Positions 12,928 to 41,242 of a DNA stretch of 64,000 bases are shown one piece after another. A program made the translations under genes and the position numbers. How positions within the stretch are numbered: the stretch's first letter is position 1; each line of letters starts with the position of its first letter. Location: the NCBI GenBank assembly GCA_016183775.1, contig JACPDY010000098.1, forward strand, positions 13,547 to 77,546. Direction: 5' to 3'. This DNA is from Bacteroidota bacterium. GTDB taxonomy: Bacteria > Bacteroidota > Bacteroidia > JABDFU01. The notes below the pieces were generated by a model. That model ran no database searches. It worked only from the letters and a program-made list of their open reading frames with translations, and was not told the DNA's origin.

Positions 12928-14907
12928 ATGCCTGATTACAGTCTTCGGCGATCAATAGTTCTTGGAAGTGTATACCTGTTAATTGGTCTGCATATTGCGC
13001 ACTGGAAAATTTCAGGCTGCTCCCTGGCACCACTGGAACTTAATGAAGTGTCGTATACGCTTCATTTAGGAATGATAACTGCCGGATTTATTTTTATGTC
13101 TGCTGCTGTTATTTCAACACTTATTGTGGGCCGTTTTTTTTGTTCCTGGGGATGTCATCTGCTCGCCCTACAGGATTTGTCATCATGGTTACTTTCTAAA
13201 GCCGGCATACGTCCGAAGCCTGTTCGATCCCGTATGTTATTGTGGATACCCATACTTGCCATGTTCAATCTTTTTATTTTTCCACTGGCAAAACGCCTAT
13301 GGGAAGGAAATGGATTGCCCGATTTTCATGTTGTTTCAGATGTACATCAATGGTCTTCATTTATTTCCAATAACCTTTGGAGAAATCTTCCCGGTCCCGG
13401 TATTACAGTATTAACTTTTGTGGTCTGTGGATTTCTGATGATTTACTTTTTGGGATCCAGAAGCTTTTGTAATTACGCATGTCCGTATGGCGCTATTTTC
13501 TCAGTTGTAGATCGCCTGGCTCCCGGCCGGATTGCACTTACCGGTGATTGTACTCAATGCGGGTTATGCACCGCCCGATGCCAGTCAGATATCAGGGTAC
13601 ATGAAGAAATTAACCGTTTTGGAATGGTAGTTAATCCTGCATGTCTGAAAGATCTTGATTGCGTGAGTGTTTGCAACGAACAAGCCATTCATTTCAGTTT
13701 TACCTCGCCTCCTTTATTTGGCAAAGATACCCAGGTAAAAAAATATTATTCTTACTCCCGTTTTGAGGATTTTGTAATCGGTATAATTTTTTTGCTGAGC
13801 CTGTTTATCCTCAGGGGACTTTATGAAACAATTCCGTTTCTGCTTGCAATTGCGATTTCTATTTTATTTGCCAGCTATTTCCTTTTCGCTTACCGGCTTA
13901 TAAAAGAAAAGGGGATCTGTCTTTTTAATAACAACACCCTGAAAAAAATGGGGAGATATACTTCTGTCGGCAAATTTTCGCTGATCATAGGGTTGTTTAT
14001 ATTATCTTTCATGTTACACAGTATATTTATCCGTTGGCATTATTATTCAGGAACACGGGCATATCTTTTAGTCAAAAAATATGCTGAAGTTTCGGCAGGG
14101 GGCTATATGTCGCCTCACCTGTTTAAAACTGCAGACCTGGCATTAGTACATTTTAAAAAAATTGACAGGTGGGGTTTACTGACGCCGGCGAGCATAAATC
14201 GTCAGCTGGCTTCCTTATATCTGATGCAGAGGGATTATCCGTTGGCTGTACAGCATTTGCAAAAAACCTTACTGCAATCACCCGCTGATAATGAGGCGCG
14301 GTTGCGGTTGGGAAATGCATATCACCTTTGGGGTAAAAGCGCTGAAGCTTCCGACGTATTTCGGAATCTGATCTCCGGATTTGGACAACTATTTTCGAAA
14401 CGAGATACAGCGATATTTGCGGGTGCAAATTCGCAATTGGGAGATATTTTAGTGTCTCAAAAAAAATACAGAAGTGCATTTCTTTGTTATTCTGCTGCTT
14501 TATCAATGGATTCCTGCAATGCTGTTCTGTGGCTTTCTTATGGATCCGCCCTGGTAAAAAACGGACAACTCTCCCGGGCAAAAGACTGCCTGATAAAAAG
14601 CCTGGAAATTGATCCCGGCTGTGCACCAGCACATTTTAACCTGGGAACAGTTTACGCGCTCATGAGTCAAACAGAAGATGCTGTACTGCATTACCGCTTG
14701 TCGGCTCAATTGAACCCTAAAAGGGCAGAAACATTCTGTAATCTCGGTATACTTTTTTTCAAACAGCACAAATTTAATGAAGCGGAAGTTGCTCTTGGCA
14801 AAGCAGGGGAATTGGATCCAAATTCAGCTATTATATATTCTTACATGGCCAAGGTGCTTGATGAAAAGAAGGAAAGCCACAGGTCGGATAATATTATTCA
14901 ACAGTAA
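12928..14907 (+). CDS. NapH/MauN-type membrane polyferredoxin (4Fe-4S) fused to C-terminal TPR repeats.
   Basis: N-terminal TM region with FCSWGCHLLALQDL, then CNYACPYGAIFS and CTQCGLCTARCQSD ferredoxin motifs. C-terminal ~300 aa are TPR-like (AxxYxxxG, LxPxxAxxxxNLG repeats). Confidence 0.65.
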   Translation: MPDYSLRRSIVLGSVYLLIGLHIAHWKISGCSLAPLELNEVSYTLHLGMITAGFIFMSAAVISTLIVGRFFCSWGCHLLALQDLSSWLLSKAGIRPKPVRSRMLLWIPILAMFNLFIFPLAKRLWEGNGLPDFHVVSDVHQWSSFISNNLWRNLPGPGITVLTFVVCGFLMIYFLGSRSFCNYACPYGAIFSVVDRLAPGRIALTGDCTQCGLCTARCQSDIRVHEEINRFGMVVNPACLKDLDCVSVCNEQAIHFSFTSPPLFGKDTQVKKYYSYSRFEDFVIGIIFLLSLFILRGLYETIPFLLAIAISILFASYFLFAYRLIKEKGICLFNNNTLKKMGRYTSVGKFSLIIGLFILSFMLHSIFIRWHYYSGTRAYLLVKKYAEVSAGGYMSPHLFKTADLALVHFKKIDRWGLLTPASINRQLASLYLMQRDYPLAVQHLQKTLLQSPADNEARLRLGNAYHLWGKSAEASDVFRNLISGFGQLFSKRDTAIFAGANSQLGDILVSQKKYRSAFLCYSAALSMDSCNAVLWLSYGSALVKNGQLSRAKDCLIKSLEIDPGCAPAHFNLGTVYALMSQTEDAVLHYRLSAQLNPKRAETFCNLGILFFKQHKFNEAEVALGKAGELDPNSAIIYSYMAKVLDEKKESHRSDNIIQQ

Positions 14908-16978
14908 TCTTGCCTGCTGCCAAAGTAGTTCTCTCTGAAAATATTTTGTAGAAATAAAGGCCATTTGTCAGACCCATCTTGCCAATAACTGTTGTACCGG
15001 AAGATATATTTGTCGCTGTCTTAACAATTCGTCCTGTAATATCATAAATTACAAGACGATAATTAATTACTGTACCCTCCTCAATTTTTATGTTTAATAC
15101 ATCTGTGAATAAATTACGGGTAAGCGTGTAATCTGGCATAGATTTATCAAAACGCTTTGCTCTTAGGAGGCAGGTTTTGTCAACAAATGCTGTCCCAGAT
15201 ACCCGGGCGCTTGCCGGATGAAAGTCGGCAGTTGTTATCTCCCAGTCATAAAGACAGGTATAATCACTTTTCCCTAATCCTGAAGTTTTTATTGATAAAA
15301 CACCGGGTATAGTATATGGATAGCTGAGGTTGGCGGTGTTTCCATAAAAGGCATGACCAGAATCGGCTTTAATGAAGAGCATATAATTAAATTCAGGAAT
15401 GACAGGAAATCCAAGTGGAATACGATTCTTTCCGGTAACCAGACTTACTCTTTTTGTATTAAGTTCATTGCCACTCCACTCCAACATTGACAGGGTAAAT
15501 GTTCCTGGATTTTTTGCATAAACTGTTATAGCCTCAAGTGTAAAGGGCGACATACAGTCAAATATCAAGTATGATGAACGTTTATAGTATTTCCCTTCAC
15601 CACTCGTATCTGATTTGCCAACATGACCCGACAGCCCTGGTATTGTTTTCACATTTTCTACAAAGAAGGTTGTTGAGTTTGTAAGAGAAGGGGTCATATA
15701 TGAATTTCCCTTTGCTACAACTCTCCCCCCGATTGGCTTATCGTACCATACAAGGCTTTCAGTGCCAAATGCCTTCAACAGCACAGAGTCACCTGAGCAA
15801 ATTGTATCGCCAATAGTTATGGGAGGAGCAGGTGGATCAAGCATATTCACAGTAAGCGGTGCTGATGTAGCGGTCCCACACGGGCTTGTAAGCGTCACAT
15901 AGTATATTCCTCCTGACTTCACTGTAATAAATGAAGTAGTATCACCGGTTGACCATTTGTAAGAATAGGCGGCTGTTGCAAGAAGTTTTAAACTGTCTCC
16001 CTGACAAATAGTAGTGGGCCCCTGGGGATAAATAATAGCCGTAGGATTTCCGACATTGTCCTGCCTGGACAAATTAACTGGTACTGTTATTATATTATTG
16101 CTCTTGTCCGATTCAAGAAAATGATTGTCAGGATCGATTTCTAATACCAGATAGTAATCATTTCCGTTACATGTTCCTGGTGGAATGTCTATCCACATAC
16201 CATAGAGATTTTTATCATATGTGTCAGTATAGCCGGGAGATATGCCCTGAAATCCCAAAGCACAGTCATAATATCCTTCCCTTCCGGAGTTGGGGAATTT
16301 ATCGTCAAGCAATATATTGTCTTTTGAATCCCGGCAGATACCGGGATAGGAGGAGCATTTTCGCTCATCATCTAAACAGAATGAATTTTTGTAGGCTCCT
16401 GCGACTATTGGCCATTTTTTAGGATTAGGCTCTTTCGGATTTTTAAGCCGTAAGCTCAGAAATTCAAAATTCCCAATATAAAAACTTGAGCTCAGCACGT
16501 TATATGGCATTGCACCCAATACGTGATCAAAATAAGAAACAGAATCCGATGTTTTTTGATAGATGCGCTGTATCACTATATGCTTGGGCTCAAGACCATC
16601 CGGGCATTTACCTATATACCCGGTAGAGAAGGTATCACTGCCGCATACCAAAAAATTTGTAGTACGTAATTCAAGAGGTCCTGATCCGATATTTGGTGTT
16701 GAAACAGAGAGCCTCAGCCTGCCATCATTCATACTAAAATCGGCGTTTTTTTGAGGATATTCAATATACCCTCCCGTATCCGTCAGAATTTGGCGGGAGA
16801 TAGTCATGTCAGGCAACAAATCGCAGTTTATAGTGGTTTCATTAATGCATTTGCTTCCTCTGGCGTCTTTAGTTGTGCAGGATTGGGAATACATAGCAAG
16901 TAATAAAGAAACATAACAAAGTAAAAAGGATATTGAACGTTTAACTAAATGTGAAAAATTTAATACGAATGAAAGCAT
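14894..16978 (-). CDS. Secreted T9SS cargo protein with a lysyl-oxidase-like domain, Ig-like beta repeats and a Por C-terminal sorting domain.
   Basis: Signal peptide. Segment KNSFCLDDERKC...GISPGYTDTYDKNLYGMWIDIPPG...YYLVLEIDPDNHFLESDKSNN parallels the LOX catalytic domain (ASFCLEDTSC...[33 protein letters not shown]...ESDYTNN). C-terminus GLYFYKIFSERTTLAAGKITVE is T9SS-CTD-like. Confidence 0.6.
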   Translation of the reverse strand: MLSFVLNFSHLVKRSISFLLCYVSLLLAMYSQSCTTKDARGSKCINETTINCDLLPDMTISRQILTDTGGYIEYPQKNADFSMNDGRLRLSVSTPNIGSGPLELRTTNFLVCGSDTFSTGYIGKCPDGLEPKHIVIQRIYQKTSDSVSYFDHVLGAMPYNVLSSSFYIGNFEFLSLRLKNPKEPNPKKWPIVAGAYKNSFCLDDERKCSSYPGICRDSKDNILLDDKFPNSGREGYYDCALGFQGISPGYTDTYDKNLYGMWIDIPPGTCNGNDYYLVLEIDPDNHFLESDKSNNIITVPVNLSRQDNVGNPTAIIYPQGPTTICQGDSLKLLATAAYSYKWSTGDTTSFITVKSGGIYYVTLTSPCGTATSAPLTVNMLDPPAPPITIGDTICSGDSVLLKAFGTESLVWYDKPIGGRVVAKGNSYMTPSLTNSTTFFVENVKTIPGLSGHVGKSDTSGEGKYYKRSSYLIFDCMSPFTLEAITVYAKNPGTFTLSMLEWSGNELNTKRVSLVTGKNRIPLGFPVIPEFNYMLFIKADSGHAFYGNTANLSYPYTIPGVLSIKTSGLGKSDYTCLYDWEITTADFHPASARVSGTAFVDKTCLLRAKRFDKSMPDYTLTRNLFTDVLNIKIEEGTVINYRLVIYDITGRIVKTATNISSGTTVIGKMGLTNGLYFYKIFSERTTLAAGKITVE

Positions 16979-17224: not shown

Positions 17225-18451
17225 TCATCCTAAATTCATCTCCCTTTGACCTGAAGATATTACGCTTTCATTTAGATCAAATTTTATTATAAACGTAGTC
17301 CCCTCTCCAAGCTTGCTGGTAAAATCAATTTTCCCGTTCAATAGTTCCACATACTTTGCAACAATATTGAGTCCAAGGCCTGTCCCCTGTATGGCGGAAA
17401 CATTTTCTCCTCTGAAAAATCTTTCGAAAAGATGTACCTGGTCTTCATCAGAAATCCCCATTCCATTATCCTCAACTTTAAGAATTAAATTTGAATGGAG
17501 AGCTTCACTTTTAATGCTTATTCTGCAGTCTTCCTTCGAAAACTTAATTGAATTTGAGATAAGGTTTAATAAAATATGTTTTAATATCTTCTTATCAAGG
17601 ATAATTTCATCCTGGCCAAAGTGATGGTATTCGATTTTCTGCCCGGGTTGGGCCACTAAAAGCATTTCCCGGACAACGTCTGACACCGCATTGTATATCG
17701 AAAACTGCTCTAATGAGGTTGTCATTCCTCCTTCTTCGAGTTTACTAACAGAAAGGATATCATTTAATATATCAGTAAGATGGACTACAGCAGATTTTAT
17801 CCGGTCAATATGCCTGTTTTGTTTTGCTTTTTCGTTTTGTTCACCATATTTCGAGACCAGGGATAGCGAAGACAGAATGGTGGCAAGAGGTGTCCGGAAC
17901 TCATGGGACGCAGTTGAAACAAATCGTGTTTTAAGCTCATTTAATTCCTTTTCGTGCTCTAAAGATTTCTGCAGCTCTTCCTCCGACTTTTTAAGATTTT
18001 TAAGTGCATTTTCCAGAACAACAGTTCGTTCTTTAACACGCTCCTCAAGATAAAAATTTGACTCTTTAAGATCTGCTGTCAATTGCTGCAGGACTTCATG
18101 CTGCTCTATAGCTTTCCGTTCAATTTTTTTATACCTGACAATAACAATCGCGCATGTAATAACAACCATAATAGAAAGCAGACGATTGGCAATGGCTATA
18201 TAGGCAACCGCACCCACAGAAGCTGGCGGCGAAAAAAAATACCCGGAAATTATCAGTACAACTCCCGTCAGGGCAGAGATAACAATGTATCTCTTATCAT
18301 TAGCCCACATTGAAAGAAGCATAACACCTACATACCAGATGCCATCCGCAACACCAAGGGGTGTAAGCAGGTCAATAGCGAATATTATCAACGAGAGGGA
18401 TAGCCCTGTAATAAATATAAAATTCGAACTTGAATTTTTGTTAGGCGGCAT
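17225..18451 (-). CDS. Membrane-bound sensor histidine kinase (HisKA + HATPase_c).
   Basis: H-box ASHEFRTPLATI, plus N- and G-boxes (NLISNSIKFS, GTGLGLNIV). Four N-terminal TM segments without a periplasmic domain. Confidence 0.85.
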   Translation of the reverse strand: MPPNKNSSSNFIFITGLSLSLIIFAIDLLTPLGVADGIWYVGVMLLSMWANDKRYIVISALTGVVLIISGYFFSPPASVGAVAYIAIANRLLSIMVVITCAIVIVRYKKIERKAIEQHEVLQQLTADLKESNFYLEERVKERTVVLENALKNLKKSEEELQKSLEHEKELNELKTRFVSTASHEFRTPLATILSSLSLVSKYGEQNEKAKQNRHIDRIKSAVVHLTDILNDILSVSKLEEGGMTTSLEQFSIYNAVSDVVREMLLVAQPGQKIEYHHFGQDEIILDKKILKHILLNLISNSIKFSKEDCRISIKSEALHSNLILKVEDNGMGISDEDQVHLFERFFRGENVSAIQGTGLGLNIVAKYVELLNGKIDFTSKLGEGTTFIIKFDLNESVISSGQREMNLG

Positions 18452-18468: not shown

Positions 18469-19401
18469 TTATAGCTGCAATTCCTTAAAACTCCTGTTGA
18501 GAAATACGGTTATCATTTCCTTCCGGTATTCCCGGGAGTACACGTCGTTATCCACAATCCTGGACTTTTTAACTGCTATCCGGATCATTTCCTCTTTATT
18601 ATCCGATTGATTTCCTTCAATAACAATTGGTCCGGGATCAATGCAGCCTAATACAATTTTAATTTTCCCCTGTTTATTAATGGTTACTGCGCTAGTTAAA
18701 GATCCAAAGTCCATGCTTTCCCGTGGCCTTAATTTTATAAACCGCGAACGGTGTTCTTCATGAAGCGGGAGGTAAATAGCCTTGATGAGTGATGTTCTTT
18801 TGATCTTGAGAGAATTAATTCCATTCCGGCTATAGATGTCTTCGAGACGAGACATATAGCCTTCGCTATATTCAATGACTTCTACACATGCGTTCATACT
18901 AATTAATGCAATAGCCATATCAGAAACGAACTTTGAAAAGCAATTCTTTTTCCCTCCTGTCGCAATACACGTATCTCCATTACATTTGAGACAATTACCG
19001 ACCGCATTTCTCCACCATTTGGTTTGATTGTAAAATGTACAGCGATTTTCACATAAAATATTCCCCCCGATAGTAGCTGTCTTTCGTATCACGGGCGTTG
19101 CCACTGCATTTGAGGTTTCTATCAGCAATGGGAATTCACTTACGATATCCGGATTCTCTTTTAAAGCATCTAAGGAAACGGCTGCGCCAATTTTCAGGTG
19201 TTTGCCGTTCCGGTTGATTTGTCTCATGTCATCAATATCAGATATATCAATCAGGCAGGATGATGAATTGTTACCGTGCAGCGTATTTACAATGACATCA
19301 GTTCCGCCTGCAATGAAACTAAAATCACTTCCGCATTCGTGAGCCAGTTTTACAGCTTCTTCAACTGTTTTTGGCCGGATATATTTTTCCATCGCAGTCA
19401 T
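18469..19401 (-). CDS. Xanthine-dehydrogenase-family FAD-binding medium subunit with a Cys-rich insertion (HcrB-like).
   Basis: CoxM/XdhB-type FAD domain (FSFIAGGTDVIVN, TIGGN). Has an extra CENRCTFYNQTKWWRNAVGNCLKCNGDTCIATGGKKNC loop like the 4Fe-4S insertion of 4-hydroxybenzoyl-CoA reductase beta subunit. Confidence 0.8.
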   Translation of the reverse strand: MTAMEKYIRPKTVEEAVKLAHECGSDFSFIAGGTDVIVNTLHGNNSSSCLIDISDIDDMRQINRNGKHLKIGAAVSLDALKENPDIVSEFPLLIETSNAVATPVIRKTATIGGNILCENRCTFYNQTKWWRNAVGNCLKCNGDTCIATGGKKNCFSKFVSDMAIALISMNACVEVIEYSEGYMSRLEDIYSRNGINSLKIKRTSLIKAIYLPLHEEHRSRFIKLRPRESMDFGSLTSAVTINKQGKIKIVLGCIDPGPIVIEGNQSDNKEEMIRIAVKKSRIVDNDVYSREYRKEMITVFLNRSFKELQL

Positions 19402-19402
19402 T

Positions 19403-22204
19403 TTACACTATAGCCCTTTTTTCAAGGCGCTTCTTCTTTATTTTGTTTAATACATCTTCAGCACTTATTGGCAAACGGGTTATCCTGACTCCTACTGCAT
19501 TAAATACAGCATTTGCTATGGCCGGAATTACCGGATGCAAAGCGCCTTCGCCGCATTCTTTTGCACCGAATGGGCCTTCCGGATCATTTGATTCAATAAT
19601 ATTTGTGTGAATATCAGGGGTGTCGAGCGTGGTGGGGATTTTATAATCAAGAAAATTGTTGTTCAGTAATAGGCCATTGAAATATTTCATTTGTTCAGAC
19701 ATTGCCTGTCCGATTCCCATGTGCCATGAGCCTTCCAATTGACCTTCCACAGCGAGCGGATTTATCGCCTTCCCGCAATCATGGGCTCCCCAAACATTTA
19801 ATACTTTTACAGATCCGGTTTCCACATCTACTTTTACTTCTGCCACACAAGCGCCAAAGGAATAGGATGGACTCAACCCCGCACCTGATCCTTTAAAATC
19901 GCCGCCGAGCTTTGGTGAGATATATTTGCCGCTCACACTTACCGCACCACGATGTGCTGTAAGAATATCAATCGCTTCATCCCAGGTTAAGTTAATTTCC
20001 CTGTTATTACTAAAAATCCGATTGCCGGAAAAATTCAACTCCTCAATTGCCACCCTGGTTTTTTTTGCAATTGCAGTACAAATTTCAGTCCTGAGATTTT
20101 CAGCAGCATTTTTTGCGGCATTTCCCGCCATAAATGTTACACGGCTTGAATAACTTCCTAAGTCAACAGGAGTAAGGAGTGTATCGGCGGAAAGGACAAA
20201 TATTTTATCAAAACTTATACCCAATACCTCAGCCACTATCATGGCAAGCATTGTATCGCTGCCCTGGCCTATGTCGCTTGCCCCGGAAGCGATCACTATG
20301 CGTCCATCAAAATCAACTTTAAGGTGAACCACTGATTGCGGTAATTCGTTCCATACAATAGGTAAAGCGCTTCCACTGATAAAGAAACCACAGCCTACTC
20401 CGAGACCATAACCATATTCCAGCTTTCCAAAGCGCTTCTTCCAATCGGACTGCTCCATGACTTTTAGCAGGGATTCCCGGCTTCCGTTCGAAGTAATGCG
20501 GTAATGGCCAACTGTAAGAGTGTTTGAGTCCAGAAAATTCTTCATTCTGAGTTCACAGGGGTCCATTTTAATTTCATGTGCCAGATCATCAATAACAGAC
20601 TCTACGGCAAACCGGGAATTTACAGCGCCGTGACCCCGCATTGCCCCGCATTGGGGTTTATTGGTATACACGCGAAAGGTCCGGAAACCAAAGTTGTTAA
20701 GCTTATAGGGAGCTTGCAGCAATACGCCATTGTAATAAGATGTAACTACTCCAAAGCTGCCATAAGCTCCGCCGTCAATCGCAATATCCGCATCAAGAGC
20801 CGTGAAGGTGCCATCTTTTGATAGTCCCATTTCTATTGTCATCTTTGAAGGATGTCGGCCATGATTCGTAATAAAAACTTCCTCGCGGGAAAGCCTTACG
20901 CGCACAGGACGTCCGATTTTTTTTGCCAGGTAAGAAATAATAATCTCGTGAGGAAAAGGATCACTTTTCCCGCCAAACCCGCCGCCAACATAAGGTTTAA
21001 TGACCCTGACGCGGCTTAGTGGCAGTTCCATAACCCTGGCGAGCGACCGATGAAGGTAATGAGGAACCTGAGTAGCTGATATTATTGTCAACCCGTTTTC
21101 ATTCCAAAAAGCCGTTGCAGCGTGAGGTTCGGTAAAGCCATGATTAATACCTTCAAATTCAAATGACATTTTACTTGTAACATCCGATTCACTCAGTCCT
21201 TGTTTCTGATTTCCAAAACGCAGTTCGGCTTTCTTATGTATGTTGTTATTAAACTTGCAATGTTCATGTATCTTCTCATTAGTTCCGACATCGTTCAAAG
21301 AGTCTTCAATGTGTAGAAATTCTTTAATGGTATTGTATTTAACCACGATCTTCCTGCATGCTTCAAGAGCCAGGGCCTCTGTATCAGCCGCCACTGCTGC
21401 AACAATTTCTCCAACATACCGTACTTTGTCAATTGCGAGTGCTGTTTCATCCTGTGAAATAGGCAGAACGCCGAACGTAACCGGCAACTCTTTTCCTGTT
21501 ACAATATAATGCACGCCTTCCATTCCCGCTGCTGCAGAAATATCAATGCTTTCAATTTTGGCATGAGGGTAAATACTTCTCAGAAATTTACAATGAAGGG
21601 CATTCTTAATCTCTATATCGTCTGCATATTCAGCTGTTCCCTTTACTTTCCTTTCAGATTCAATATAGGGCTTTCGTTTACCAATAACGTTCAAAGTATT
21701 TAACTCGGGTGTATCAATATTTTCCGATGGAACTATTCCTCCCGCTATTTCGGATGAATATTCAGCAACAGCCTCTATAATTTTCTTGTATCCCGTGCAG
21801 CGACATAAATTTCCTGAAAGAGCCGTCTTAATTTCTTCTGTTGACGGATTAACGGTTTTGCTGACAAATTCGAGTGCGGTAATTACCATACCGGGAGTAC
21901 AAAATCCGCACTGAATCGCACCCTTTTCAATAAATTTTTGCTGTAGTTTATGGAGTTCACCGTTTTTAGAGAGCGCTTCGATAGTTATTATTTCAGCGTT
22001 CCCGCAGCGGTGAGCCGGAGTTATGCAACTTAAGGCTGGTTTTCCATTAACTAATACCGTACATGCTCCGCAACTGCCTTGCTCACAACCAATTTTAGTC
22101 CCCGTTAATCTTACTTTCTCACGAATCACTTTCGAAAGCATTTCATGTTCCTCTGCAAGCAGGGTAATAAGACTTCCGTTTATTCTGAGTTGAAGTTCTT
22201 TCAT
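19403..22204 (-). CDS. Fused [2Fe-2S] small subunit plus molybdopterin-binding large subunit of a xanthine dehydrogenase/aldehyde oxidase-family molybdoenzyme.
   Basis: N-terminal GCEQGSCGACTV...CGFCTPGM...CRCTGY 2Fe-2S motifs, followed by ~770 aa of aldehyde oxidase/xanthine dehydrogenase Mo-binding domains. Confidence 0.9.
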   Translation of the reverse strand: MKELQLRINGSLITLLAEEHEMLSKVIREKVRLTGTKIGCEQGSCGACTVLVNGKPALSCITPAHRCGNAEIITIEALSKNGELHKLQQKFIEKGAIQCGFCTPGMVITALEFVSKTVNPSTEEIKTALSGNLCRCTGYKKIIEAVAEYSSEIAGGIVPSENIDTPELNTLNVIGKRKPYIESERKVKGTAEYADDIEIKNALHCKFLRSIYPHAKIESIDISAAAGMEGVHYIVTGKELPVTFGVLPISQDETALAIDKVRYVGEIVAAVAADTEALALEACRKIVVKYNTIKEFLHIEDSLNDVGTNEKIHEHCKFNNNIHKKAELRFGNQKQGLSESDVTSKMSFEFEGINHGFTEPHAATAFWNENGLTIISATQVPHYLHRSLARVMELPLSRVRVIKPYVGGGFGGKSDPFPHEIIISYLAKKIGRPVRVRLSREEVFITNHGRHPSKMTIEMGLSKDGTFTALDADIAIDGGAYGSFGVVTSYYNGVLLQAPYKLNNFGFRTFRVYTNKPQCGAMRGHGAVNSRFAVESVIDDLAHEIKMDPCELRMKNFLDSNTLTVGHYRITSNGSRESLLKVMEQSDWKKRFGKLEYGYGLGVGCGFFISGSALPIVWNELPQSVVHLKVDFDGRIVIASGASDIGQGSDTMLAMIVAEVLGISFDKIFVLSADTLLTPVDLGSYSSRVTFMAGNAAKNAAENLRTEICTAIAKKTRVAIEELNFSGNRIFSNNREINLTWDEAIDILTAHRGAVSVSGKYISPKLGGDFKGSGAGLSPSYSFGACVAEVKVDVETGSVKVLNVWGAHDCGKAINPLAVEGQLEGSWHMGIGQAMSEQMKYFNGLLLNNNFLDYKIPTTLDTPDIHTNIIESNDPEGPFGAKECGEGALHPVIPAIANAVFNAVGVRITRLPISAEDVLNKIKKKRLEKRAIV

Positions 22205-22205
22205 T

Positions 22206-22946
22206 TTAAATCATATTACTTCCAATACTTTTACCGCCATCCACATAAATTGTTTGACCTGTTATAAACTGTGTCGTTTCTGCAGCCAGGAAGGAAACTG
22301 CGGTTGCCACATCCTCCGGTTTTCCCATGGACTTTGTTGGCTGCGCTTCAATTAATTTTCCTAAAATTTCCTTTTCCAATTTTTGTGTAAGCGGTGTGTC
22401 AATTAGCCCCGGGGCTATTGCATTTACAAACACATTATATTTGCCGAGCTCGAGGGCTAAAGCTCGTGTAAGCGAAACAACACCTGCTTTGGATGCGGAG
22501 TAATTACTTTGTCCGCGATTCCCAAGCCATGCGCGTGAAGATATGTTAATGATTCGCCCCCCATTTTGCCTTTTCATAATTATTGCCGCTTCCCGGCACA
22601 TTAACCAGGTACCTTTCAGGTTTATATTTATTACTGTATCAAATTCGGCAGTAGTCATGTTCCAGATCAGGTTATCACGAATAACGCCGGCATTGTTTAC
22701 CAGTATATCAACCTGTTTGTGCTTCGAAATAATTTTCTGAAATAATTGTTGGATGATTTTCTCTTTGGTGATGTCGGCTTTGGCAAAGCTCAATTTGTCT
22801 TTGCCGAATTCAGCCAAAAGCTTTTTGCCGCCATTTTCATCTATATCAATCGCGATTACAAAACAGTTATCTGCAATGAGTTTCTTTACGATCGCTTTTC
22901 CAATACCTTTTCCTGCGCCGGTTACGAGTGCAATTCTTTTTCCCAT
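22206..22946 (-). CDS. SDR-family NAD(P)-dependent oxidoreductase.
   Basis: TGAGKGIGKAI Rossmann motif, NNAG, and YSASKAG catalytic triad region. Confidence 0.85.
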   Translation of the reverse strand: MGKRIALVTGAGKGIGKAIVKKLIADNCFVIAIDIDENGGKKLLAEFGKDKLSFAKADITKEKIIQQLFQKIISKHKQVDILVNNAGVIRDNLIWNMTTAEFDTVININLKGTWLMCREAAIIMKRQNGGRIINISSRAWLGNRGQSNYSASKAGVVSLTRALALELGKYNVFVNAIAPGLIDTPLTQKLEKEILGKLIEAQPTKSMGKPEDVATAVSFLAAETTQFITGQTIYVDGGKSIGSNMI

Positions 22947-23710
22947 TGTTTCACATTGTTTTTAACTAGTATTAATTTCGCCAAAATGCTAAACGCTATT
23001 TCATCCGGCCCTTCGGCTCCGATATTAATACCCATGGGCATATCAACTGTTTCCAGTTTTTCTTCCGGTATGTTTAGCCCCTGTACAAATATTTTTTTTG
23101 TCATTTCAACTTTCCGCCGGCTCCCGATCATGCCCAAATATGCGAATGGCTTTTTTAGGCAAAAGGCCAGAATATCTCTGTCCTTTGGATGACTGTGAGT
23201 CATAATACAGATAAAAGTGTTTTCATCGAATGGAAGCAGCTGCAATGCCTTTTGACAGGGTATATTCATTTTATTGACCTCCTCAGTAGTACATTGGTTA
23301 ATGTATTCTTTACGTTCATCAATTAAAACAATTTCGAAATTGAGATTGCTGGCATACCTAGCAAGTGCCTGGCCGGTATGCCCGGCACCAAAAATGTATA
23401 ATTTGTTCATTTTCATAATCGGCTCAATGTAAATGTCCACCGTTCCTCCACAACACATATTATGTTGGTTCAATAAATCATGCCGATAAAGCTTTGGCCT
23501 CTTCTCACTAATTGTCGACAATGCATTACCAATAACTTTTCTTTCTAATTCTCCTCCTCCTATGGTTCCGTAAATTTGACCATCGGAATAAACTATCATC
23601 TTTGCACCAATCTTTCTGGGAGTACTTCCATGTGTATTCACAACGGTGCATAGTGCCACTCCCTGATTAATTGCTTCAGCTTCAGCTATCTTTTTATATA
23701 AGTCCTTCAC
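22922..23710 (-). CDS. XdhC/CoxI-family molybdoenzyme maturation factor.
   Basis: Family-typical NAD-binding-like central region (KLYIFGAGHTGQALA). Sits in the Mo-enzyme operon. Confidence 0.75.
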   Translation of the reverse strand: MKDLYKKIAEAEAINQGVALCTVVNTHGSTPRKIGAKMIVYSDGQIYGTIGGGELERKVIGNALSTISEKRPKLYRHDLLNQHNMCCGGTVDIYIEPIMKMNKLYIFGAGHTGQALARYASNLNFEIVLIDERKEYINQCTTEEVNKMNIPCQKALQLLPFDENTFICIMTHSHPKDRDILAFCLKKPFAYLGMIGSRRKVEMTKKIFVQGLNIPEEKLETVDMPMGINIGAEGPDEIAFSILAKLILVKNNVKQWEKELHS

Positions 23711-24314
23711 TTATTTTTACTTTTTGCTCAATAGCCCTTTCGTAATCATCCGGAGTATTTATATTGGTCAATATATATTCGTCGTTAACAATAATGTTCC
23801 GCCTTGGAAACCCCGACAAAACACTTCTGAGATTTAAATCCTGATCAGGAATTACTGAACTCACATACCGTATAATATTTTTTGAGATTACGATAGGATG
23901 ACCGTTTTTGCCCTGGTAAGAAGGAATAGTGTATCCATATGAATTTCTGTTCTCCAGCAAATTTTTAATGGTTTCCATATTCACAAAGGGGTTATCAATA
24001 TTCTGAATGAAACAACAATCCATGTCCATCATCCTTTCCATCCCGAGTTTAATAGAATGAAATCTTCCGGCTTCACGTGCAGGGCTTCTGACTATTTCAG
24101 AAGTTGGCAGTACTTCGTCAATGTATTTGCTCCACTCATCACTGCAGAAATCTGAATTCAATACAACACAGATATTTTTTATTCCCGCATTCCAATATCT
24201 GTCAACAATTCTTTTCAGAAACGTTTCACCCTGGTACAAGAGATAGGCTTTCGGAAAATTCATCCGTTCTGATTTCCCTCCTGCCAAAATGAGTGCTCCG
24301 GTCATATTATTCAT
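23694..24314 (-). CDS. MobA/MocA-like molybdenum cofactor nucleotidyltransferase (probable cytidylyltransferase for the MCD cofactor).
   Basis: MTGALILAGGKSERM N-terminal signature. ORF opens at 24371, but the likely start is Met at 24314 or 24305, clear of the palindrome at 24363-24376. Confidence 0.75.
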   Translation of the reverse strand: MNNMTGALILAGGKSERMNFPKAYLLYQGETFLKRIVDRYWNAGIKNICVVLNSDFCSDEWSKYIDEVLPTSEIVRSPAREAGRFHSIKLGMERMMDMDCCFIQNIDNPFVNMETIKNLLENRNSYGYTIPSYQGKNGHPIVISKNIIRYVSSVIPDQDLNLRSVLSGFPRRNIIVNDEYILTNINTPDDYERAIEQKVKISEGLI

Positions 24315-24362
24315 TCTCAGTCCATTTATATACGAAAGTATTCTTATTCGCCTTTTAATATT

Positions 24363-24376
24363 ATGATTCAAATCAT
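24363..24376. promoter_or_regulatory. Candidate Crp/Fnr-family site ATGATTCAAATCAT in the divergent promoter region between the Mo-enzyme operon and the bcr/hgd-like operon.
   Basis: Perfect palindrome. 48 bp upstream of the 24424 ATG and ~50 bp upstream of the mobA-like start. Confidence 0.5.
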
Positions 24377-24423: not shown

Positions 24424-25587
24424 ATGAAATCTCTTGATGCCATACTGAAAGAATGCGAAGAGCTTGCTTTCGATTTAAATTTTTCACGTGCTAAAAAATG
24501 GAAAGCGGAACACAAGGATCGGATTTTAGTAGGGTATCTACCGATTTATATTCCGCGCGAGATCATACATGCCGCAAGTGGTCTTCCGGTTGGCATCATG
24601 GGGGCGGGCGACAGAAAACAAATAATCAAAGGCGACGCCTATTATCAGTCCTATATTTGCCATTTGCCCCGTGGCATTATTGAAATGGCACTCGATACTA
24701 ATTTAAGCGGGTTTGACGGGTTCCTGTTTCCTGCGATTTGCGATTGCGTAAGAAATCTTTCCGGAATGTTTAAGCTCTCTCATAAAGGAAAATTTCAAAG
24801 ATATTTTGATTACCCTCAAAACTTTGACGCTTTCGTTGGTGGAACTTTTTACGTTCAGGAAATGGAAAAAGTAATGGAAGACATGTATAATATTAACAAA
24901 GTTAAAGTTGCTGAAGAAAATATAAATAAGGCGATTATACTCTATAATAGAAATCGAAAGTTGATCGAAGAAATATATAATATCCGGCAACAATATCCCT
25001 GGAGGTTATCTGCGGTAGAAACATATTTCATCCTCCGGGCGGGAATCACAATACCTGTTGAAGAGCATAATAAAATACTAGATCAGGTATTGGTTTATAT
25101 TAATGAAGAACGGGGTGAACCAATGGATAATATTCGTGTTGTTGTTTCGGGCTCGTTTTGTGAACAACCTCCTGTCGGGTTAATAAAATCAATAGAAATG
25201 GCAGGATGTTATATTGTGGATGATGACTTTATGCTTGGGTCACGGTGGATACAGGGCGAAATTAATTCGGCTGCTGATAATCCTTTGAAATCCCTTGCGA
25301 ATGCGTATATCAATCAAAGTACATTTTCATCCGCGTATTATGATGTGGGAAATCCGAAGGGAAAACGATTGGTTGAATTGGCAAAAGCGAGAAATGCAGA
25401 CGGAATTATTTTTTCCGCGGCCAGCTTCTGTGATCCGGCTTTGCTCGATAGGCCGCAGATGCAGAAGGAATGTGATGAAGCGGGAATTCCCCATATCAAT
25501 TTTCAGTTTCATGAAAACACAGGACAGTTTAAGGTTATTAAAGAACAGGCAGGTACATTCTCAGATTCGATTAAACTATGGGCCTGA
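24424..25587 (+). CDS. 2-Hydroxyacyl-CoA dehydratase / benzoyl-CoA reductase family component (HgdB/BcrC-like).
   Basis: 387 aa, the size of BcrC (386 aa). Conserved Cys for the [4Fe-4S] cluster (ICDCVRN, SFCDPAL). HgdB-type N-terminus. Confidence 0.75.
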   Translation: MKSLDAILKECEELAFDLNFSRAKKWKAEHKDRILVGYLPIYIPREIIHAASGLPVGIMGAGDRKQIIKGDAYYQSYICHLPRGIIEMALDTNLSGFDGFLFPAICDCVRNLSGMFKLSHKGKFQRYFDYPQNFDAFVGGTFYVQEMEKVMEDMYNINKVKVAEENINKAIILYNRNRKLIEEIYNIRQQYPWRLSAVETYFILRAGITIPVEEHNKILDQVLVYINEERGEPMDNIRVVVSGSFCEQPPVGLIKSIEMAGCYIVDDDFMLGSRWIQGEINSAADNPLKSLANAYINQSTFSSAYYDVGNPKGKRLVELAKARNADGIIFSAASFCDPALLDRPQMQKECDEAGIPHINFQFHENTGQFKVIKEQAGTFSDSIKLWA

Positions 25588-25769
25588 AGCAAGTCAATAA
25601 TACCGGCTATTCTGCAATAATTTTCCATAAAGAGATTTTTGGATCGATGAAAATTGCCCTGATATCGGAATGTATAATTAAAGTCATTTCATTTGGTTAA
25701 AGGACTGTATTAAAAGCCGGGGTGATTAAATTTTTCTTCGGCAGTTATTTATTTTTTAAAAAACAGATA

Positions 25770-27071
25770 ATGGCAAATCCACAAGAGGCTATCAAGGAGA
25801 AAAGTATGAATCTCCAGAAGGAAATGCTGGCAAAGCAATTTCACGAGTTAAGTATGGCAAAAGAACTTGGGAAAAAAGTTGTATACACTTTTGTTCCCGG
25901 AAATCTTACTGAGCTGATTCTTTCATTTGATATGCTCCCTGTGTATCCTGAAATTAATGCACTTCAATCGGGAATGAGAAAAAAATCAGGTTCATTTATA
26001 AAGGATGCTGAAAAAATCGGGTTTTCGGAAGATGTGTGTACATATGTAAAATGCGACATAGGCATGATGTTGAATGGAAATATCGGACCTACAGGAGAAA
26101 AGCTTCCCAGTCCCGATTTACTTCTGCTCAGTTACACAGGCTGCTTTACTTTTCTCAAGTGGTTCGAAAACCTGGAGAGGCTTTATCCGGGAGTTCCGGT
26201 TGCTATGCTTCATACGCCCTACCAAGAGGACGGAAAGATAACCAAAGATCAGATCGAGTATATGGTAAAGCAGCTGAAGGAAGATGTAATTCCTAAAATG
26301 GAAAAGGTTTCAGGAAAAAAGTATGATCCTTCAAGATTGTCGAAAATGATGGAGAATTCGGTAAAGGCCGAAGATCTGCTTGTAAAAGTTCTGGAAAGTG
26401 CAAAAAATGTTCCTTCGCCAATTGATGCATATTTTGCCGGGGTGTATTATATAGGCCCCATATTCACTGCGTTTCGGGGAACGGAAGAATCGGTAAATTA
26501 TTATACAGAGCTTTGGAATGAGGTTCAGGATCGGATGAAACTTGGATTGGGACCGGTTACGCCGGAAGGCGAGATGAAAGAGCAAAAGTTTCGCTTAGTA
26601 GTGGAAGGCCCTCCAAACTGGACAAATTTTCGGGAATTTTGGAAAATATTTTACGACATGGGTGCAGTTATTGTGGCTTCTTCCTATACAAAAGTAGGGG
26701 GTGTTTATGACTTAGGATTCCGACATGATCCCAAAGAACCATTGGAAAGCTTATCCAGGTATTGTATGGGATGCTATACCAACATGAATTTACCGCAGCG
26801 TGTTGGCCTTCTTGAGAAATATGTGAAGGAGTATAAAGCGGATGGCTTCCTTATTAATTCCATTAAAAGTTGTAATTCCTTTTCGGCCGGACAGCTTATG
26901 ATTATGCGTGAAATTGAACAACGAACGGGAGTTCCGGTTGGCTTTATCGAAAGCGACCTGGTCGATCCGCGGTATTTCTCATATGCGAATATTAAAAACC
27001 GCCTGGAATCGTACTTCCAGATGCTGGAACAACGAAAAATTATTTTGAAGCAGGAAGGCATAGCTGCCTGA
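25770..27071 (+). CDS. 2-Hydroxyacyl-CoA dehydratase / benzoyl-CoA reductase family component (HgdA/BcrB-like).
   Basis: Track ORF opens at 25722, but the likely start is MANPQEA at 25770. ~433 aa, HgdA/BcrB-sized. Conserved Cys (CTYVKCD, GCFTF, SCNSFSAG). Confidence 0.75.
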   Translation: MANPQEAIKEKSMNLQKEMLAKQFHELSMAKELGKKVVYTFVPGNLTELILSFDMLPVYPEINALQSGMRKKSGSFIKDAEKIGFSEDVCTYVKCDIGMMLNGNIGPTGEKLPSPDLLLLSYTGCFTFLKWFENLERLYPGVPVAMLHTPYQEDGKITKDQIEYMVKQLKEDVIPKMEKVSGKKYDPSRLSKMMENSVKAEDLLVKVLESAKNVPSPIDAYFAGVYYIGPIFTAFRGTEESVNYYTELWNEVQDRMKLGLGPVTPEGEMKEQKFRLVVEGPPNWTNFREFWKIFYDMGAVIVASSYTKVGGVYDLGFRHDPKEPLESLSRYCMGCYTNMNLPQRVGLLEKYVKEYKADGFLINSIKSCNSFSAGQLMIMREIEQRTGVPVGFIESDLVDPRYFSYANIKNRLESYFQMLEQRKIILKQEGIAA

Positions 27072-27097
27072 TTAATAAATAAAAACTGTATACTAAA

Positions 27098-28516
27098 ATG
27101 AATAAATACTATCTCGGGGTTGATCTGGGATCTACTACCTCAAAAGCGGTCATCATCGACGAAAGGGATGAAATTATCGGACGTGGAATTACTAATACCC
27201 GCGCTAACTATGCAGTTGCTGCTGATATTGCCCGCGATGAAGCCCTTTATAACGCCCGATTCTTCGTGCTTCAAAAAAAATTGGAGGAAGAAATAAAAGC
27301 AAAACCTGAGTACAGGAAATACATCACCGACCTCGAAAGTGTTTTTCAATACGAGCAATTCAAAGTTCGCCTTGATAGATTGGGCTTGGAGTTATTGAAA
27401 ACGTGCAATACTTTTTTTAAAGATGAAAAACAGAAGGAAGAAATCATCGGCCACCTGAGAAATATCCGAAAGGCATTCAAGCCGGTAATCAAACGCGACT
27501 ATCTCTACAATAACCTGGGTTCTAAAAATCAATTCTTCAGGGATATTGTTTCGGAAAAATATAATGAAGAAGTGAATAAACTTGACATGTCTCTATTTGA
27601 GCCACTCATGACTGTATGGGACAAAAGTATTAGTCCCGCCGAAAATGAGCGTATTCAATTCAACTTTCAGGAACTTGTTCACAAAGCGATGGGAGAACTG
27701 AAGGATAAGTATAAAAATCTTCCTGATACGGTTGCGGATAACACAAGTGTAAATTTTGACGCGGAAATGAATTTACTTAAGGGTAATTTCAACCATGTTT
27801 CAGAAACGCTTCGCGAACATATTGATGAGATCGCTGAGATCGAATTCAACATTACCAGCATGACCGGAACAGGTTATGGTCGTGCGCTATTACCTTTTCC
27901 ACAGGATTGTATTCGGTCCGAAATTTTGTGTCATGCCTTTGGCGCGCACGCAGTTTTCCCGGAAACCAGAACAGTACTTGATATTGGCGGGCAGGATACC
28001 AAAGCTATACAAGTTGATAAATATGGCCTTGTTACAAGTTTCCAGATGAACGACAGATGCGCGGCAGGATGCGGAAGATACCTGGGCTACATTGCTGATG
28101 AAATGAGCATTTCACTGAATGAGCTTGGTCCCATGGCCATGAAGGCAGAAAAGGAAGTGACCATTTGTTCTACCTGTACCGTATTTGCCGGAGCAGAATT
28201 GCGTGAACTTACCAATCTTGGAGAGAAACGGGAAGACATACTTGGAGGATTGCACAAGGCAATAATCATGCGTGCTATGTCCTTAATTGCACGCTCCGGA
28301 GGAGTATTTAATGAATTTACATTTACAGGCGGAGTTGCACGGAATCCGGCAGTTATAAAATACCTGGGTCAGCTTGTAAAAGAAAATTACGGAGATGGCA
28401 TAAAAATAAATATTCATGCTGATTCCATATTCATGGGAGCCCTTGGCGGTGCAATGTTTGCCAGAAGAAATATTCAGGCAGATTTACCAATTGTGAAAAA
28501 AGAAAAGGTAATATAA
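27098..28516 (+). CDS. BadF/BadG/BcrA/BcrD-type ATPase (electron-transfer activase) with a ~200-aa internal insertion (BcrA-like large ATPase).
   Basis: LGVDLGSTTSKAVI N-terminal ATPase motif, TGYGR, and DRCAAGCGRYLG cluster-bridging Cys. Insertion between residues ~45 and ~250 is absent from HgdC. Confidence 0.8.
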   Translation: MNKYYLGVDLGSTTSKAVIIDERDEIIGRGITNTRANYAVAADIARDEALYNARFFVLQKKLEEEIKAKPEYRKYITDLESVFQYEQFKVRLDRLGLELLKTCNTFFKDEKQKEEIIGHLRNIRKAFKPVIKRDYLYNNLGSKNQFFRDIVSEKYNEEVNKLDMSLFEPLMTVWDKSISPAENERIQFNFQELVHKAMGELKDKYKNLPDTVADNTSVNFDAEMNLLKGNFNHVSETLREHIDEIAEIEFNITSMTGTGYGRALLPFPQDCIRSEILCHAFGAHAVFPETRTVLDIGGQDTKAIQVDKYGLVTSFQMNDRCAAGCGRYLGYIADEMSISLNELGPMAMKAEKEVTICSTCTVFAGAELRELTNLGEKREDILGGLHKAIIMRAMSLIARSGGVFNEFTFTGGVARNPAVIKYLGQLVKENYGDGIKINIHADSIFMGALGGAMFARRNIQADLPIVKKEKVI

Positions 28517-34157: not shown

Positions 34158-34997
34158 ATGGTAAAATCTTTTTATACACTGGGAGTCGACGTAGGAAGTA
34201 ATTTTATAAAGGTGGCTCTTGTGGACTACTCTGAGAGTCCAAAAATCATCGACAAGCATACAGAAAAGATACGAAAACGGAATCCTACAACTGTTGCAGA
34301 TGAGATGATTCAAACAATCCTTCAGAAAAACGGATTGAAGGATTGTGATATTGCATATTTGGCTTCAACCGGTGAGGGAGATTTAGTAAAGCGTAAACGC
34401 GGTCATTTTTATGGAATGACGACACATTCCAAGGGCGCAAACTTTTTTTTTCCTGACGCAAAGTCTGTGGTAGATATGGGGGCATTATATGTCCGTGCAG
34501 TAAAAGTTGCAGAAGATGCGAGGGTACTGGATTATAAGATGACCGGTCAATGCGCATCCGGGTCTGGTCAATTCGTTGAAAACATTTCCCGCTATCTGGG
34601 TTTATCTATTGAGGAAGTGGGAGATGTTTCTCTCATGGCCGATGAAGCTGAAGTTTCATCAGGGATTTGCGCGGTACTCGCGGAAACAGATGTTATCAAC
34701 ATGGTTTCACGTGGTATAACTACTCCTAATATTATTAAAGGAATTCATATTTCTATAGCAGGAAGAATTATCAAGCTTCTGAGTTCACTCAAGGCAGAAT
34801 CGCCTATAATCCTGACGGGGGGTATGTCTCTTAACAAAGGAATGATTCAGGCTATCGAAGAGCAATTAAAGGAGACGGGGAAGAAATTTGTCATTAAAAC
34901 TCATTCCGATGCTATTTATGCAGGGGCCATTGGTGCTGCATTATGGGGAGGATTCAGACATATTAAACTGAAAGAAAAGCAAGCTGTAATATCATAA
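34158..34997 (+). CDS. BadF/BadG/BcrA/BcrD-type ATPase (small activase, BcrD/HgdC-sized).
   Basis: LGVDVGSNFIKVALV, then MTGQCASGSGQF cluster-binding Cys pair. 279 aa. Confidence 0.85.
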   Translation: MVKSFYTLGVDVGSNFIKVALVDYSESPKIIDKHTEKIRKRNPTTVADEMIQTILQKNGLKDCDIAYLASTGEGDLVKRKRGHFYGMTTHSKGANFFFPDAKSVVDMGALYVRAVKVAEDARVLDYKMTGQCASGSGQFVENISRYLGLSIEEVGDVSLMADEAEVSSGICAVLAETDVINMVSRGITTPNIIKGIHISIAGRIIKLLSSLKAESPIILTGGMSLNKGMIQAIEEQLKETGKKFVIKTHSDAIYAGAIGAALWGGFRHIKLKEKQAVIS

Positions 34998-36742: not shown

Positions 36743-36744
36743 TT

Positions 36745-37962
36745 ATGTATGAGATAAAAGCCACACAGGAATTAAAAAAGGTAATGCGCGATTATTTTCT
36801 GTCGCTTGATAGCGGTGAAAATAAAATTGCGTGGTGTACAAGCGTGGGTCCTGCAGAATTACTCAGGTCATTTGGCTTTGAGGTTTATTTTCCTGAAAAT
36901 CATGGAGCGCTTTTAGGTGCAACACGTACTGCAATGGATCTTATTCCTGAATCCGCCAAACTAGGCTATTCCAATCATATATGCTCATATACTACTGCTG
37001 ATATTGGCTCGTACCTGGCAAAAATATCTCCGCTTAAAAATCAATATGGGATGAAAGGTGTACCAAAGCCGGATTTGATTGTATACAATACCAATCAGTG
37101 CCGTGAGGTTCAGGATTGGTTCGGTTTTTTTGCAAAAGAATTTAATTGCCCTATTGTTGGAATTCACCCTCCGAGATATATAGATGACGTGTCAAAAGAA
37201 GAGATAGCGCTTGTTGTTGACCAGCATAAAAAAATAATTACACTATGTGAAAAAGTCAGTGGTAATAAATTTGATATTGACAGGTTCCGTGAAACGCTGA
37301 GATTAAGTAAAGAAGCGACCCATCTTTGGCAGGAGGTCCTTAAAACTTCCACGGCATCACCTGCGCCAATCAGCTTTTTTGACGGAGTGATTCACATGGG
37401 TCCCATTGTAGTGATGCGGGGAACAGAACAAGCAATAGATTATTACACTTTACTTCTGAAGGAGCTGAAAGAGAATGTGATGAACAAGAATGGGGTCGTA
37501 AAAAACGAACAATTACGTATTTTTTGGGAGGGAATGCCAATTTGGGGAAAAATCCGGATGCTTTCAGATTTATTTGTTCAGAATAATACCGCTGTTGTTG
37601 CTTCCACATATTGCAGCAGTTGGGTGTTTGATGAGTTTGATGAAAGGAACCCATTCGAATCGTCAGCACTTGCGTATACAAAAATTTTTATAAACAGAAG
37701 TGAGAAGGCAAAATTAAAAATGTTAAAACTCTGGCTTGACGAATACAAGTGTGATGGTATTTTATTTCATGATACGAAAACATGCTTTAATAATTCGAAT
37801 GCAAAATTCGGAATGCCATTACGTTTAAAGGAAGAAACAGGTATGCCCTACCTTATTATAGAAGGAGATTTATGTGATTTGAGATTTTTCTCGGAAGGAC
37901 AAAGCATCACAAAAATTGAAACGTTTATTGAGCAAATTGAATCTTCAAAAATACATTCGTGA
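36745..37962 (+). CDS. Second 2-hydroxyacyl-CoA dehydratase / benzoyl-CoA reductase family component (HgdB/BcrC-like paralogue).
   Basis: 405 aa, with the same architecture as the 24424 gene. WCTSVGP N-terminal region and conserved Cys (HICSYT, YCSSW, TKTCFN). Confidence 0.7.
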   Translation: MYEIKATQELKKVMRDYFLSLDSGENKIAWCTSVGPAELLRSFGFEVYFPENHGALLGATRTAMDLIPESAKLGYSNHICSYTTADIGSYLAKISPLKNQYGMKGVPKPDLIVYNTNQCREVQDWFGFFAKEFNCPIVGIHPPRYIDDVSKEEIALVVDQHKKIITLCEKVSGNKFDIDRFRETLRLSKEATHLWQEVLKTSTASPAPISFFDGVIHMGPIVVMRGTEQAIDYYTLLLKELKENVMNKNGVVKNEQLRIFWEGMPIWGKIRMLSDLFVQNNTAVVASTYCSSWVFDEFDERNPFESSALAYTKIFINRSEKAKLKMLKLWLDEYKCDGILFHDTKTCFNNSNAKFGMPLRLKEETGMPYLIIEGDLCDLRFFSEGQSITKIETFIEQIESSKIHS

Positions 37963-41047: not shown

Positions 41048-41050
41048 GAA

Positions 41051-41242
41051 ATGAGCCGTTGGAAATACCCATTTAATACAAAGGCGCATGCTGAGAAATA
41101 CCTGAAACAGGCAGAGCAGGAGACAGGAAAAAGATGTTTCATTCGCCAGGTTTCAACCAGAGCGCATGTGTTTAAAATATTTTCATCTGAGACTGAATAT
41201 ATAGAATATCAAAAGAAAAAAAGTACAGGACATGGGCACTAA
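41051..41242 (+). CDS. Small hypothetical protein (63 aa) filling the thiolase-ADH gap.
   Basis: Fits exactly between neighbouring genes and overlaps the next start by 11 bp. No recognisable motif. Confidence 0.3.
   Translation: MSRWKYPFNTKAHAEKYLKQAEQETGKRCFIRQVSTRAHVFKIFSSETEYIEYQKKKSTGHGH

Follow-up and report, generated by a model that had tools for sequence, protein, structure and literature searches.

A predicted T9SS cargo protein of a Bacteroidota bacterium with a lysyl oxidase fold and no canonical copper site: a probable pseudoenzyme

Introduction

Lysyl oxidases (LOX) rely on three histidines that bind the copper needed both for activity and for formation of the lysine tyrosylquinone (LTQ) cofactor (PMC4448552; PMC6452851). 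In human LOX, the copper-ligating residues are H292, H294, and H296 (PMC4448552). LOX domains were reported in Bacteroidetes in 2015, in work that described prokaryotic LOX proteins as mostly single-domain (PMC4448552), and bacterial LOX-domain proteins have been catalogued without an established native function. A prokaryotic LOX-domain protein from Haloterrigena turkmenica (HTU-LOX) has the three histidines, showed raised activity when Cu2+ was supplied on refolding, and is an amine oxidase, sensitive to β-aminopropionitrile, with a broad range of substrates (PMC6452851). Here we describe a LOX-like gene in a 64,000-nucleotide stretch of DNA from a Bacteroidota bacterium (assembly GCA_016183775.1, contig JACPDY010000098.1, positions 13,547 to 77,546), which we call the window. 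Its product, the window protein, combines a LOX-fold domain that has lost its copper-binding histidines with the sorting signal of the type IX secretion system (T9SS), and it is probably a pseudoenzyme.

Results

LOX-fold domain and copper loop

The features of the LOX-like gene that bear on catalysis are listed below.

14894..16978, minus strand: LOX-like gene, an intact open reading frame (ORF) of 694 aa plus stop
16064..16873, minus strand: LOX-fold domain, residues 36-305
16463..16504, minus strand: degenerate former copper loop YNVLSSSFYIGNFE, residues 159-172, from the family and LOXL2 alignments
16367..16405, minus strand: Lys block VAGAYKNSFCLDD, residues 192-204, from profile alignment
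16388-16390, minus strand: K197, equivalent of the LTQ lysine, K320 of human LOX (numbering of PMC4448552)
16217..16234, minus strand: Tyr block GYTDTY, residues 249-254, from profile alignment
16217-16219, minus strand: Y254, equivalent of the LTQ tyrosine, Y355 of human LOX (numbering of PMC4448552)

The Pfam profile PF01186 (Lysyl_oxidase) matched residues 220-303 of the window protein with E = 1.1e-10 and a score of 42 bits (cutoff, 20.4), over profile positions 112-194 of 204. We considered coverage of this profile as a test of the copper site and dropped it: the intact relatives P0155 and P0122 likewise match only profile positions ~112-197, so that the partial match is a property of the whole family and uninformative on the copper site. 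A family profile of 62 sequences aligned with the sequence of human LOXL2 in PDB entry 5ZE3 (E = 1.8e-10) in a single co-linear stretch, pairing three blocks that are defined in the LOX literature (PMC4448552). Family YhpsHgHfH.vddW was paired with LOXL2 WHDCHRHYHsMEVF (copper site), GaKlsFCLmD with GHKASFCLED (LTQ lysine), and GytDiY with GCWDMY (LTQ tyrosine). K197 lies in the segment AYKNSFCLDD, aligned to GHKASFCLED, and by alignment K197 and Y254 are the LTQ-equivalent residues of the window protein. Lys occupies its position in 99% of family members and Tyr in 100%.

The loop YNVLSSSFYIGNFE aligns with YHPxHGHMHVDDWG of the family and with WHDCHRHYHSMEVF of LOXL2. Its former His columns hold N160, at the non-essential first position, and S163, S165, and Y167, at the columns of the HxHxH triad. 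The triad histidines of 5ZE3 reportedly coordinate the metal together with the LTQ tyrosine. The only His residues in the mature N-terminal domain of the window protein are H133, H152, and H286. We also considered a hidden HxHxH that would be restored by compensating frameshifts and ruled it out, because both other frames contain stops across the loop. As aligned, the canonical copper site is truly absent.

A preliminary description of this DNA, made by eye from the letters, had proposed a LOX-like domain, had assigned the cofactor Lys and Tyr to the peptides VAGAYKNSFCLDD and GYTDTY, and had seen no canonical copper site. The profile search recovered the domain, both peptides were located at the residues given above, with their Lys and Tyr paired to the LTQ residues of 5ZE3, and the replaced His columns bear out the missing site. 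A fourth His is conserved in the Bacteroidota family, spaced as H289 is in human LOX (YH..HxHxH; the column of window residue 160); a 2015 survey had reported this first His as absent from bacterial LOX sequences (PMC4448552).

We surveyed the HxHxH motif in ~100 matches from a word-indexed search and ~125 domains from an exhaustive search of 50%-identity representatives, setting aside two short, apparently frameshifted fragments. The motif was universal except in three lineages, namely, the window protein, P0165, and P0253. Of the 32 family columns with at least 95% conservation, 28 are unchanged in the window protein, and the exceptions are H163S, H165S, H167Y, and one N-terminal Cys; all of the disulfide Cys but one are kept.

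A clade without the copper site

A scan of a species-representative genome collection yielded close relatives on a single contig of a Bacteroidia metagenome-assembled genome (MAG), which we refer to as L001; the scan otherwise gave only L002, an Ig-only match.

L001 73-4096 (JAEUTS010000398.1): tandem copper-less LOX-like paralogs, the upstream copy cut by the contig end

One of these paralogs has 702 aa and the other at least 636 aa. Identity to the window protein is 61% and 62%, and the paralogs share 59% identity between themselves. Their loops read YHNMGSNFHIGRFE (two of four His kept) and FNPLSTSSIKRFE (none of four kept), and both retain the Lys block (KNSYCLED, KNSFCLED) and the Tyr (GYTDTY, GYADTY). 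Synteny is shared as well, in that a convergent Fer4/TPR membrane-protein gene, homologous to the one at window positions 12928..14907, also lies beside the L001 paralogs. The LOX-like and Fer4/TPR genes overlap by 14 bp at their 3' ends in the window (14894-14907), and in L001 they are adjacent, 61 bp apart, without overlap.

In a neighbor-joining tree of 119 LOX domains, the window protein and the two L001 paralogs formed an exclusive clade, the sister of which is P0155, a 701-aa protein of the same architecture with an intact loop, YHSLHSHFHVDDW. P0165 and P0253 were placed elsewhere in the tree, and their His losses are therefore independent. The P0165 loop is YSN--TSMYVDDWG, with K and Y kept; the degenerate loop, K, and Y are shared by all six members of its 90%-identity cluster (P0165 and P0262-P0266, 91-100% identical). 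P0253 has lost the LTQ Tyr along with the His residues.

Outside the loop, the mean identity to 112 outgroup domains was 0.424 for the window protein versus 0.440 for the intact sister. Of 72 family columns with conservation of at least 80%, all three clade members differ from the family at only 8; these include four in the copper loop (H163, H165, D169, and W171) and two that are alignment-edge or gap effects. The residues replacing His vary among the three members (S/G/S, S/N/S, Y/H/-), and no invariant His was found anywhere in the alignment of the three proteins. Four acidic residues are invariant and specific to the clade, E172 in the former copper loop, D220, D225, and D284, and occur in only 2-12% of the wider family. 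Metagenome contigs were scanned twice, with the window protein as the query and with the clade alignment, and no more members were found; the clade is rare in public data, with three proteins from two MAGs.

The picture that these alignments give is of a metal site that was lost selectively and of a fold on which purifying selection has continued to act. Loss of catalytic residues that is shared by relatives, in a domain under purifying selection (28/32 columns, no rate acceleration), is the combination by which a pseudoenzyme is recognized. Judged by this comparison, the loss of the copper site is a feature of the clade, not an artifact or decay.

Remaining modules and predicted export

Outside the LOX-fold domain, the window protein carries the following elements.

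16886..16978, minus strand: predicted Sec signal peptide, residues 1-31, from sequence inspection and hydropathy
15836..16042, minus strand: first post-LOX module, residues 313-381, family consensus C.GDS..L.A....Y.WS.G.T
15647..15835, minus strand: Ig_7 (CHU_C-associated Ig-like) domain, residues 382-444 (PF19081, E = 4.9e-15, 56 bits)
15224..15643, minus strand: jelly-roll beta-sandwich, residues ~446-585, from an AlphaFold2 model and Foldseek
14897..15106, minus strand: T9SS type-A C-terminal sorting domain, residues 625-694 (PF18962 and TIGR04183)

Both models of the sorting domain scored above their cutoffs, PF18962 (Por_Secre_tail) at 27.3 bits (cutoff, 27; residues 625-691) and TIGR04183 at 28.3 bits (cutoff, 23; residues 628-691), in agreement with the preliminary assignment of the protein as type-A T9SS cargo. 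That description took everything beyond the LOX-like domain to be Ig-like repeats and a Por tail; the Ig_7 domain and the tail stand, and residues ~446-585 are instead a separate jelly-roll. This domain of ~140 residues, with the family motifs YPY and FYDWE, aligns across 23 members and had no significant sequence match in Pfam or PDB. The AlphaFold2 model of residues 446-585 (pLDDT, 92.1) was most similar in Foldseek to the PHR domains 3NO8 (E = 6.5e-4, TM score of 0.50) and 3GBW (TM score of 0.53), followed by weaker carbohydrate-binding-module and lectin matches. This jelly-roll is a candidate for a new domain family among T9SS cargo proteins. The module at residues 313-381 is presumed to be Ig-like; scanned alone, it had no Pfam match, and an assignment of residues 305-385 as Ig_7 was dropped for the same reason.

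T9SS cargo requires a signal peptide. The one predicted here has K13 and R14 in its n-region, a hydrophobic core at residues 15-28, and probable cleavage between ...MYS and Q32, and the relatives have equivalent N-termini that end in ...A, followed by QC. We considered a lipoprotein anchored through C34 and rejected it, as the preceding YSQS is unlike a lipobox and the relatives show an A-Q junction like that of signal peptidase I. From Met29 onward, the window protein is identical to NCBI entry MBI2271171.1 (666 aa, from a Bacteroidota MAG), which is publicly named "T9SS type A sorting domain-containing protein," a name silent on the LOX domain; the protein is a singleton at 90% identity clustering. 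The public start at Met29 would remove the predicted signal peptide, and a start at 16978 restores one that is typical by inspection and hydropathy. The public annotation could thus be improved in both its start codon and its name. No T9SS components (SprA/Sov, PorU, PorV, etc.) were found among the scanned ORFs of the 64-kb window.

Family size and literature

An exhaustive profile search over cluster representatives (50% identity) returned 3247 LOX family representatives at E ≤ 1e-3, 991 at E ≤ 1e-10, and 180 at E ≤ 1e-30. Among 59 full-length representatives, all 59 had the Pfam LOX domain, 52 had Por_Secre_tail, and 44 had Ig_7. The preliminary description had called bacterial LOX-like proteins rare, a view that does not survive the 991 representatives at E ≤ 1e-10; nor are T9SS-delivered ones rare, given the sorting tail in 52/59 of the full-length proteins. 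Some members are already named "lysyl oxidase family protein" by NCBI. We found no literature tying LOX domains to T9SS, and no experimental characterization of any member of this Bacteroidota LOX/T9SS family was apparent in the searchable literature. This large family was already catalogued, and the copper-less clade is a variant within it. That the family is large and almost always linked to T9SS points to a cell-surface role for its active members.

Genomic neighborhood

The neighbors of the LOX-like gene include the Fer4/TPR membrane protein, a histidine kinase, a xanthine dehydrogenase (XDH)-type molybdoenzyme cluster, and a 2-oxoacid:ferredoxin oxidoreductase. A six-frame HMM scan found no second LOX-like copy in the window.

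17225-18451: histidine kinase flanking the LOX-like gene
18469-24371, minus strand: xanthine-dehydrogenase-family molybdoenzyme cluster, immediately upstream of the histidine kinase
24424-28516 and 34997-46213: clusters typical of anaerobic acyl-CoA/aromatic degradation
48934-55125, minus strand: Nar-type respiratory nitrate reductase, adjoining a cytochrome c gene

The XDH cluster comprises a FAD subunit, a fused 2Fe-2S/molybdenum cofactor subunit (933 aa), a short-chain dehydrogenase/reductase, XdhC, and a MobA-like gene. The degradation clusters encode three HGD-D dehydratase-type subunits and two BcrAD/BadFG ATPases, one of which is fused to an ApbA/ketopantoate-reductase-like domain (37959-39788), together with an AMP-ligase, a thiolase, an alcohol dehydrogenase, enoyl-CoA hydratases, and a 3-hydroxyacyl-CoA dehydrogenase. 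The Nar subunits are a 1207-aa molybdopterin subunit and a Fer4/Nitr_red_bet_C beta subunit, and the cluster suggests nitrate respiration. Oxygen-sensitive enzymes of anaerobic type in the window are the HGD-D 2-hydroxyacyl-CoA-dehydratase-type proteins with BcrAD/BadFG activator ATPases, the 2-oxoacid:ferredoxin oxidoreductase, and a radical-SAM protein. This host seems to be adapted to an anaerobic or nitrate-respiring lifestyle.

Discussion

We postulate, with a probability of roughly 0.65, that the window protein is a T9SS-exported pseudoenzyme in which the LOX fold has been kept for a binding or structural role. The Sec signal peptide would carry the protein to the periplasm, and the type-A C-terminal domain would then steer it through the T9SS to surface attachment or release, a route that we infer from established T9SS biology. 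Type-A C-terminal domains are normally cleaved after passage through the T9SS, and the protein is then surface-attached or released. With its copper-binding His replaced, as they are in its two closest relatives, and the rest of the domain under purifying selection, the LOX-fold domain would neither bind copper canonically nor mature LTQ, and it would not be an amine oxidase. The S, S, and Y at the ligand positions, together with the lack of conserved substitute ligands, make amine oxidase activity unlikely. The fold is conserved, and T9SS would display it beside beta-sandwich modules, so that a non-catalytic role is most likely. Most likely, then, the protein is without copper, without LTQ, and without activity, and it serves in binding; its domain architecture most plausibly indicates a LOX-fold module retained on the cell surface in a ligand-binding, adhesive, or structural capacity. 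The preliminary description had favored a surface or extracellular amine oxidase or cross-linking enzyme, which is improbable given that all three essential His are seen to be replaced and that the clade conserves no other His in their stead; it had offered a non-catalytic LOX-fold adhesin should the copper ligands be truly missing, and this is the option that the evidence favors. A plausible reason for the His loss is that an oxidase dependent on O2 and copper would be of little use in an anaerobic lifestyle. Automatic "lysyl oxidase" labels should not be read as activity for this protein.

Some observations weigh against this proposal. K197 and Y254 persist throughout the clade and also in the P0165 lineage with its independent degeneration, and this could mean that cofactor chemistry is still needed; the Lys and Tyr blocks also hold conserved Cys and Gly, and structural constraint can therefore explain the retention. 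One L001 paralog still has two of the four His positions. The domain architecture, from which we draw the adhesin role, indicates no ligand, and no functional clue (copper chaperone, amine metabolism, or T9SS parts) was found among the genes beside the LOX-like gene.

The same strict retention of K197 and Y254, seen in the whole clade and throughout the six-member P0165 cluster, would be expected of a still-active amine or lysyl oxidase that holds its metal through non-canonical ligands (Y167, N160, or carboxylates such as E172) and forms LTQ from K197 and Y254. Purifying selection on the domain and the clade-invariant acidic residues E172, D220, D225, and D284 would fit such an enzyme, but none of the three His regarded in the literature as essential is left (PMC4448552), the replacement residues vary within the clade, which argues against a new defined ligand set there, and the clade has no invariant His. 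LOX chemistry also needs O2, and the host appears anaerobic or nitrate-respiring, so we regard continued oxidase activity as decidedly unlikely. The four acidic residues could instead mark an active-site region remodeled for a non-oxidative purpose, for example, a carboxylate-rich pocket for a cationic ligand or another metal (Ca2+), in a neofunctionalized binder or enzyme. Their scarcity in the wider family (2-12%), the retained K and Y, and the absence of general rate acceleration are compatible with such remodeling, as are the at least three independent site losses in the family, which suggest that copper-less versions are viable and useful. However, invariance among only three clade sequences is weak evidence, and the loop is variable within the clade; we consider remodeling unlikely.

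Gene decay after loss of function, or an artifact of MAG sequencing or assembly, would be in keeping with the MAG source, the singleton status of the protein at 90% identity, and the rarity of the clade in public data. This explanation is already largely refuted and very improbable. The 694-aa ORF is intact with all domains present and all disulfide Cys but one kept, the alternative frames are closed, and, apart from the loop, the protein has diverged to the same extent as the intact sister. Moreover, the degenerate loop and the synteny recur in two further intact copies, from a MAG that was assembled independently.

We speculate, as a doubtful further possibility, that the clade is more than simply inactive and that in an anaerobic or nitrate-respiring Bacteroidota lineage the LOX cleft was put to new use, to bind without need of O2 or to hold another metal, with K197 and Y254 kept and the clade-specific carboxylates E172 (in the former copper loop), D220, D225, and D284 gained. 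If this were true, the repurposed cleft might recognize lysine- or amine-bearing polymers on the cell surface, and the three independent losses of the His core would trace a path, taken more than once, by which an oxidase becomes a receptor or adhesin. The clade and its intact sister P0155 form a natural copper-site knockout and a ready pair for comparing the fold with and without its cofactor.

Comparison with known systems

The nearest system is the Bacteroidota LOX/T9SS family itself (P0155; P0180, 694 aa; and P0091 from Fibrella aquatica), of which the window protein is a member at about 44-47% identity. It shares the normal order of the family, LOX domain, Ig_7, YPY/FYDWE jelly-roll, and Por_Secre_tail. 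Members of the family keep YHPxHGHMHVDDWG, which is lost from the window protein and its two closest relatives. Relative to animal LOX, for which the human LOXL2 catalytic domain (PDB 5ZE3) is the sole solved structure, the His triad is changed to S163, S165, and Y167, an insertion of ~20 residues follows the Lys block, and there is an N-terminal extension. The window protein also lacks SRCR domains and a propeptide, has Ig_7, the jelly-roll, and the T9SS tail in their place, and has a bacterial host. HTU-LOX shares the conserved K and Y with the window protein but has the three His, without which the window protein is predicted to be inactive.

In the red-algal LOX-like proteins (a secreted LOXL of Cyanidium caldarium and a protein of Cyanidioschyzon merolae), the LTQ Lys and Tyr and the Cys are kept and the His core is lost, as in the window protein (PMC6508830; PMC4448552). 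They are secreted, in line with the predicted export of the window protein; unlike it, they are eukaryotic, single-domain, and N-glycosylated, and their His loss is independent. By sequence pattern, they are the closest precedent. The recurrence of this pattern independently in bacteria leads one to ask whether the Lys and Tyr also serve some purpose other than LTQ. The window protein is a LOX family member by fold and sequence and a Bacteroidota LOX/T9SS member by architecture; because it lacks the His triad, one of the features that define a catalytically competent LOX, a listing as a lysyl oxidase enzyme would be misplaced.

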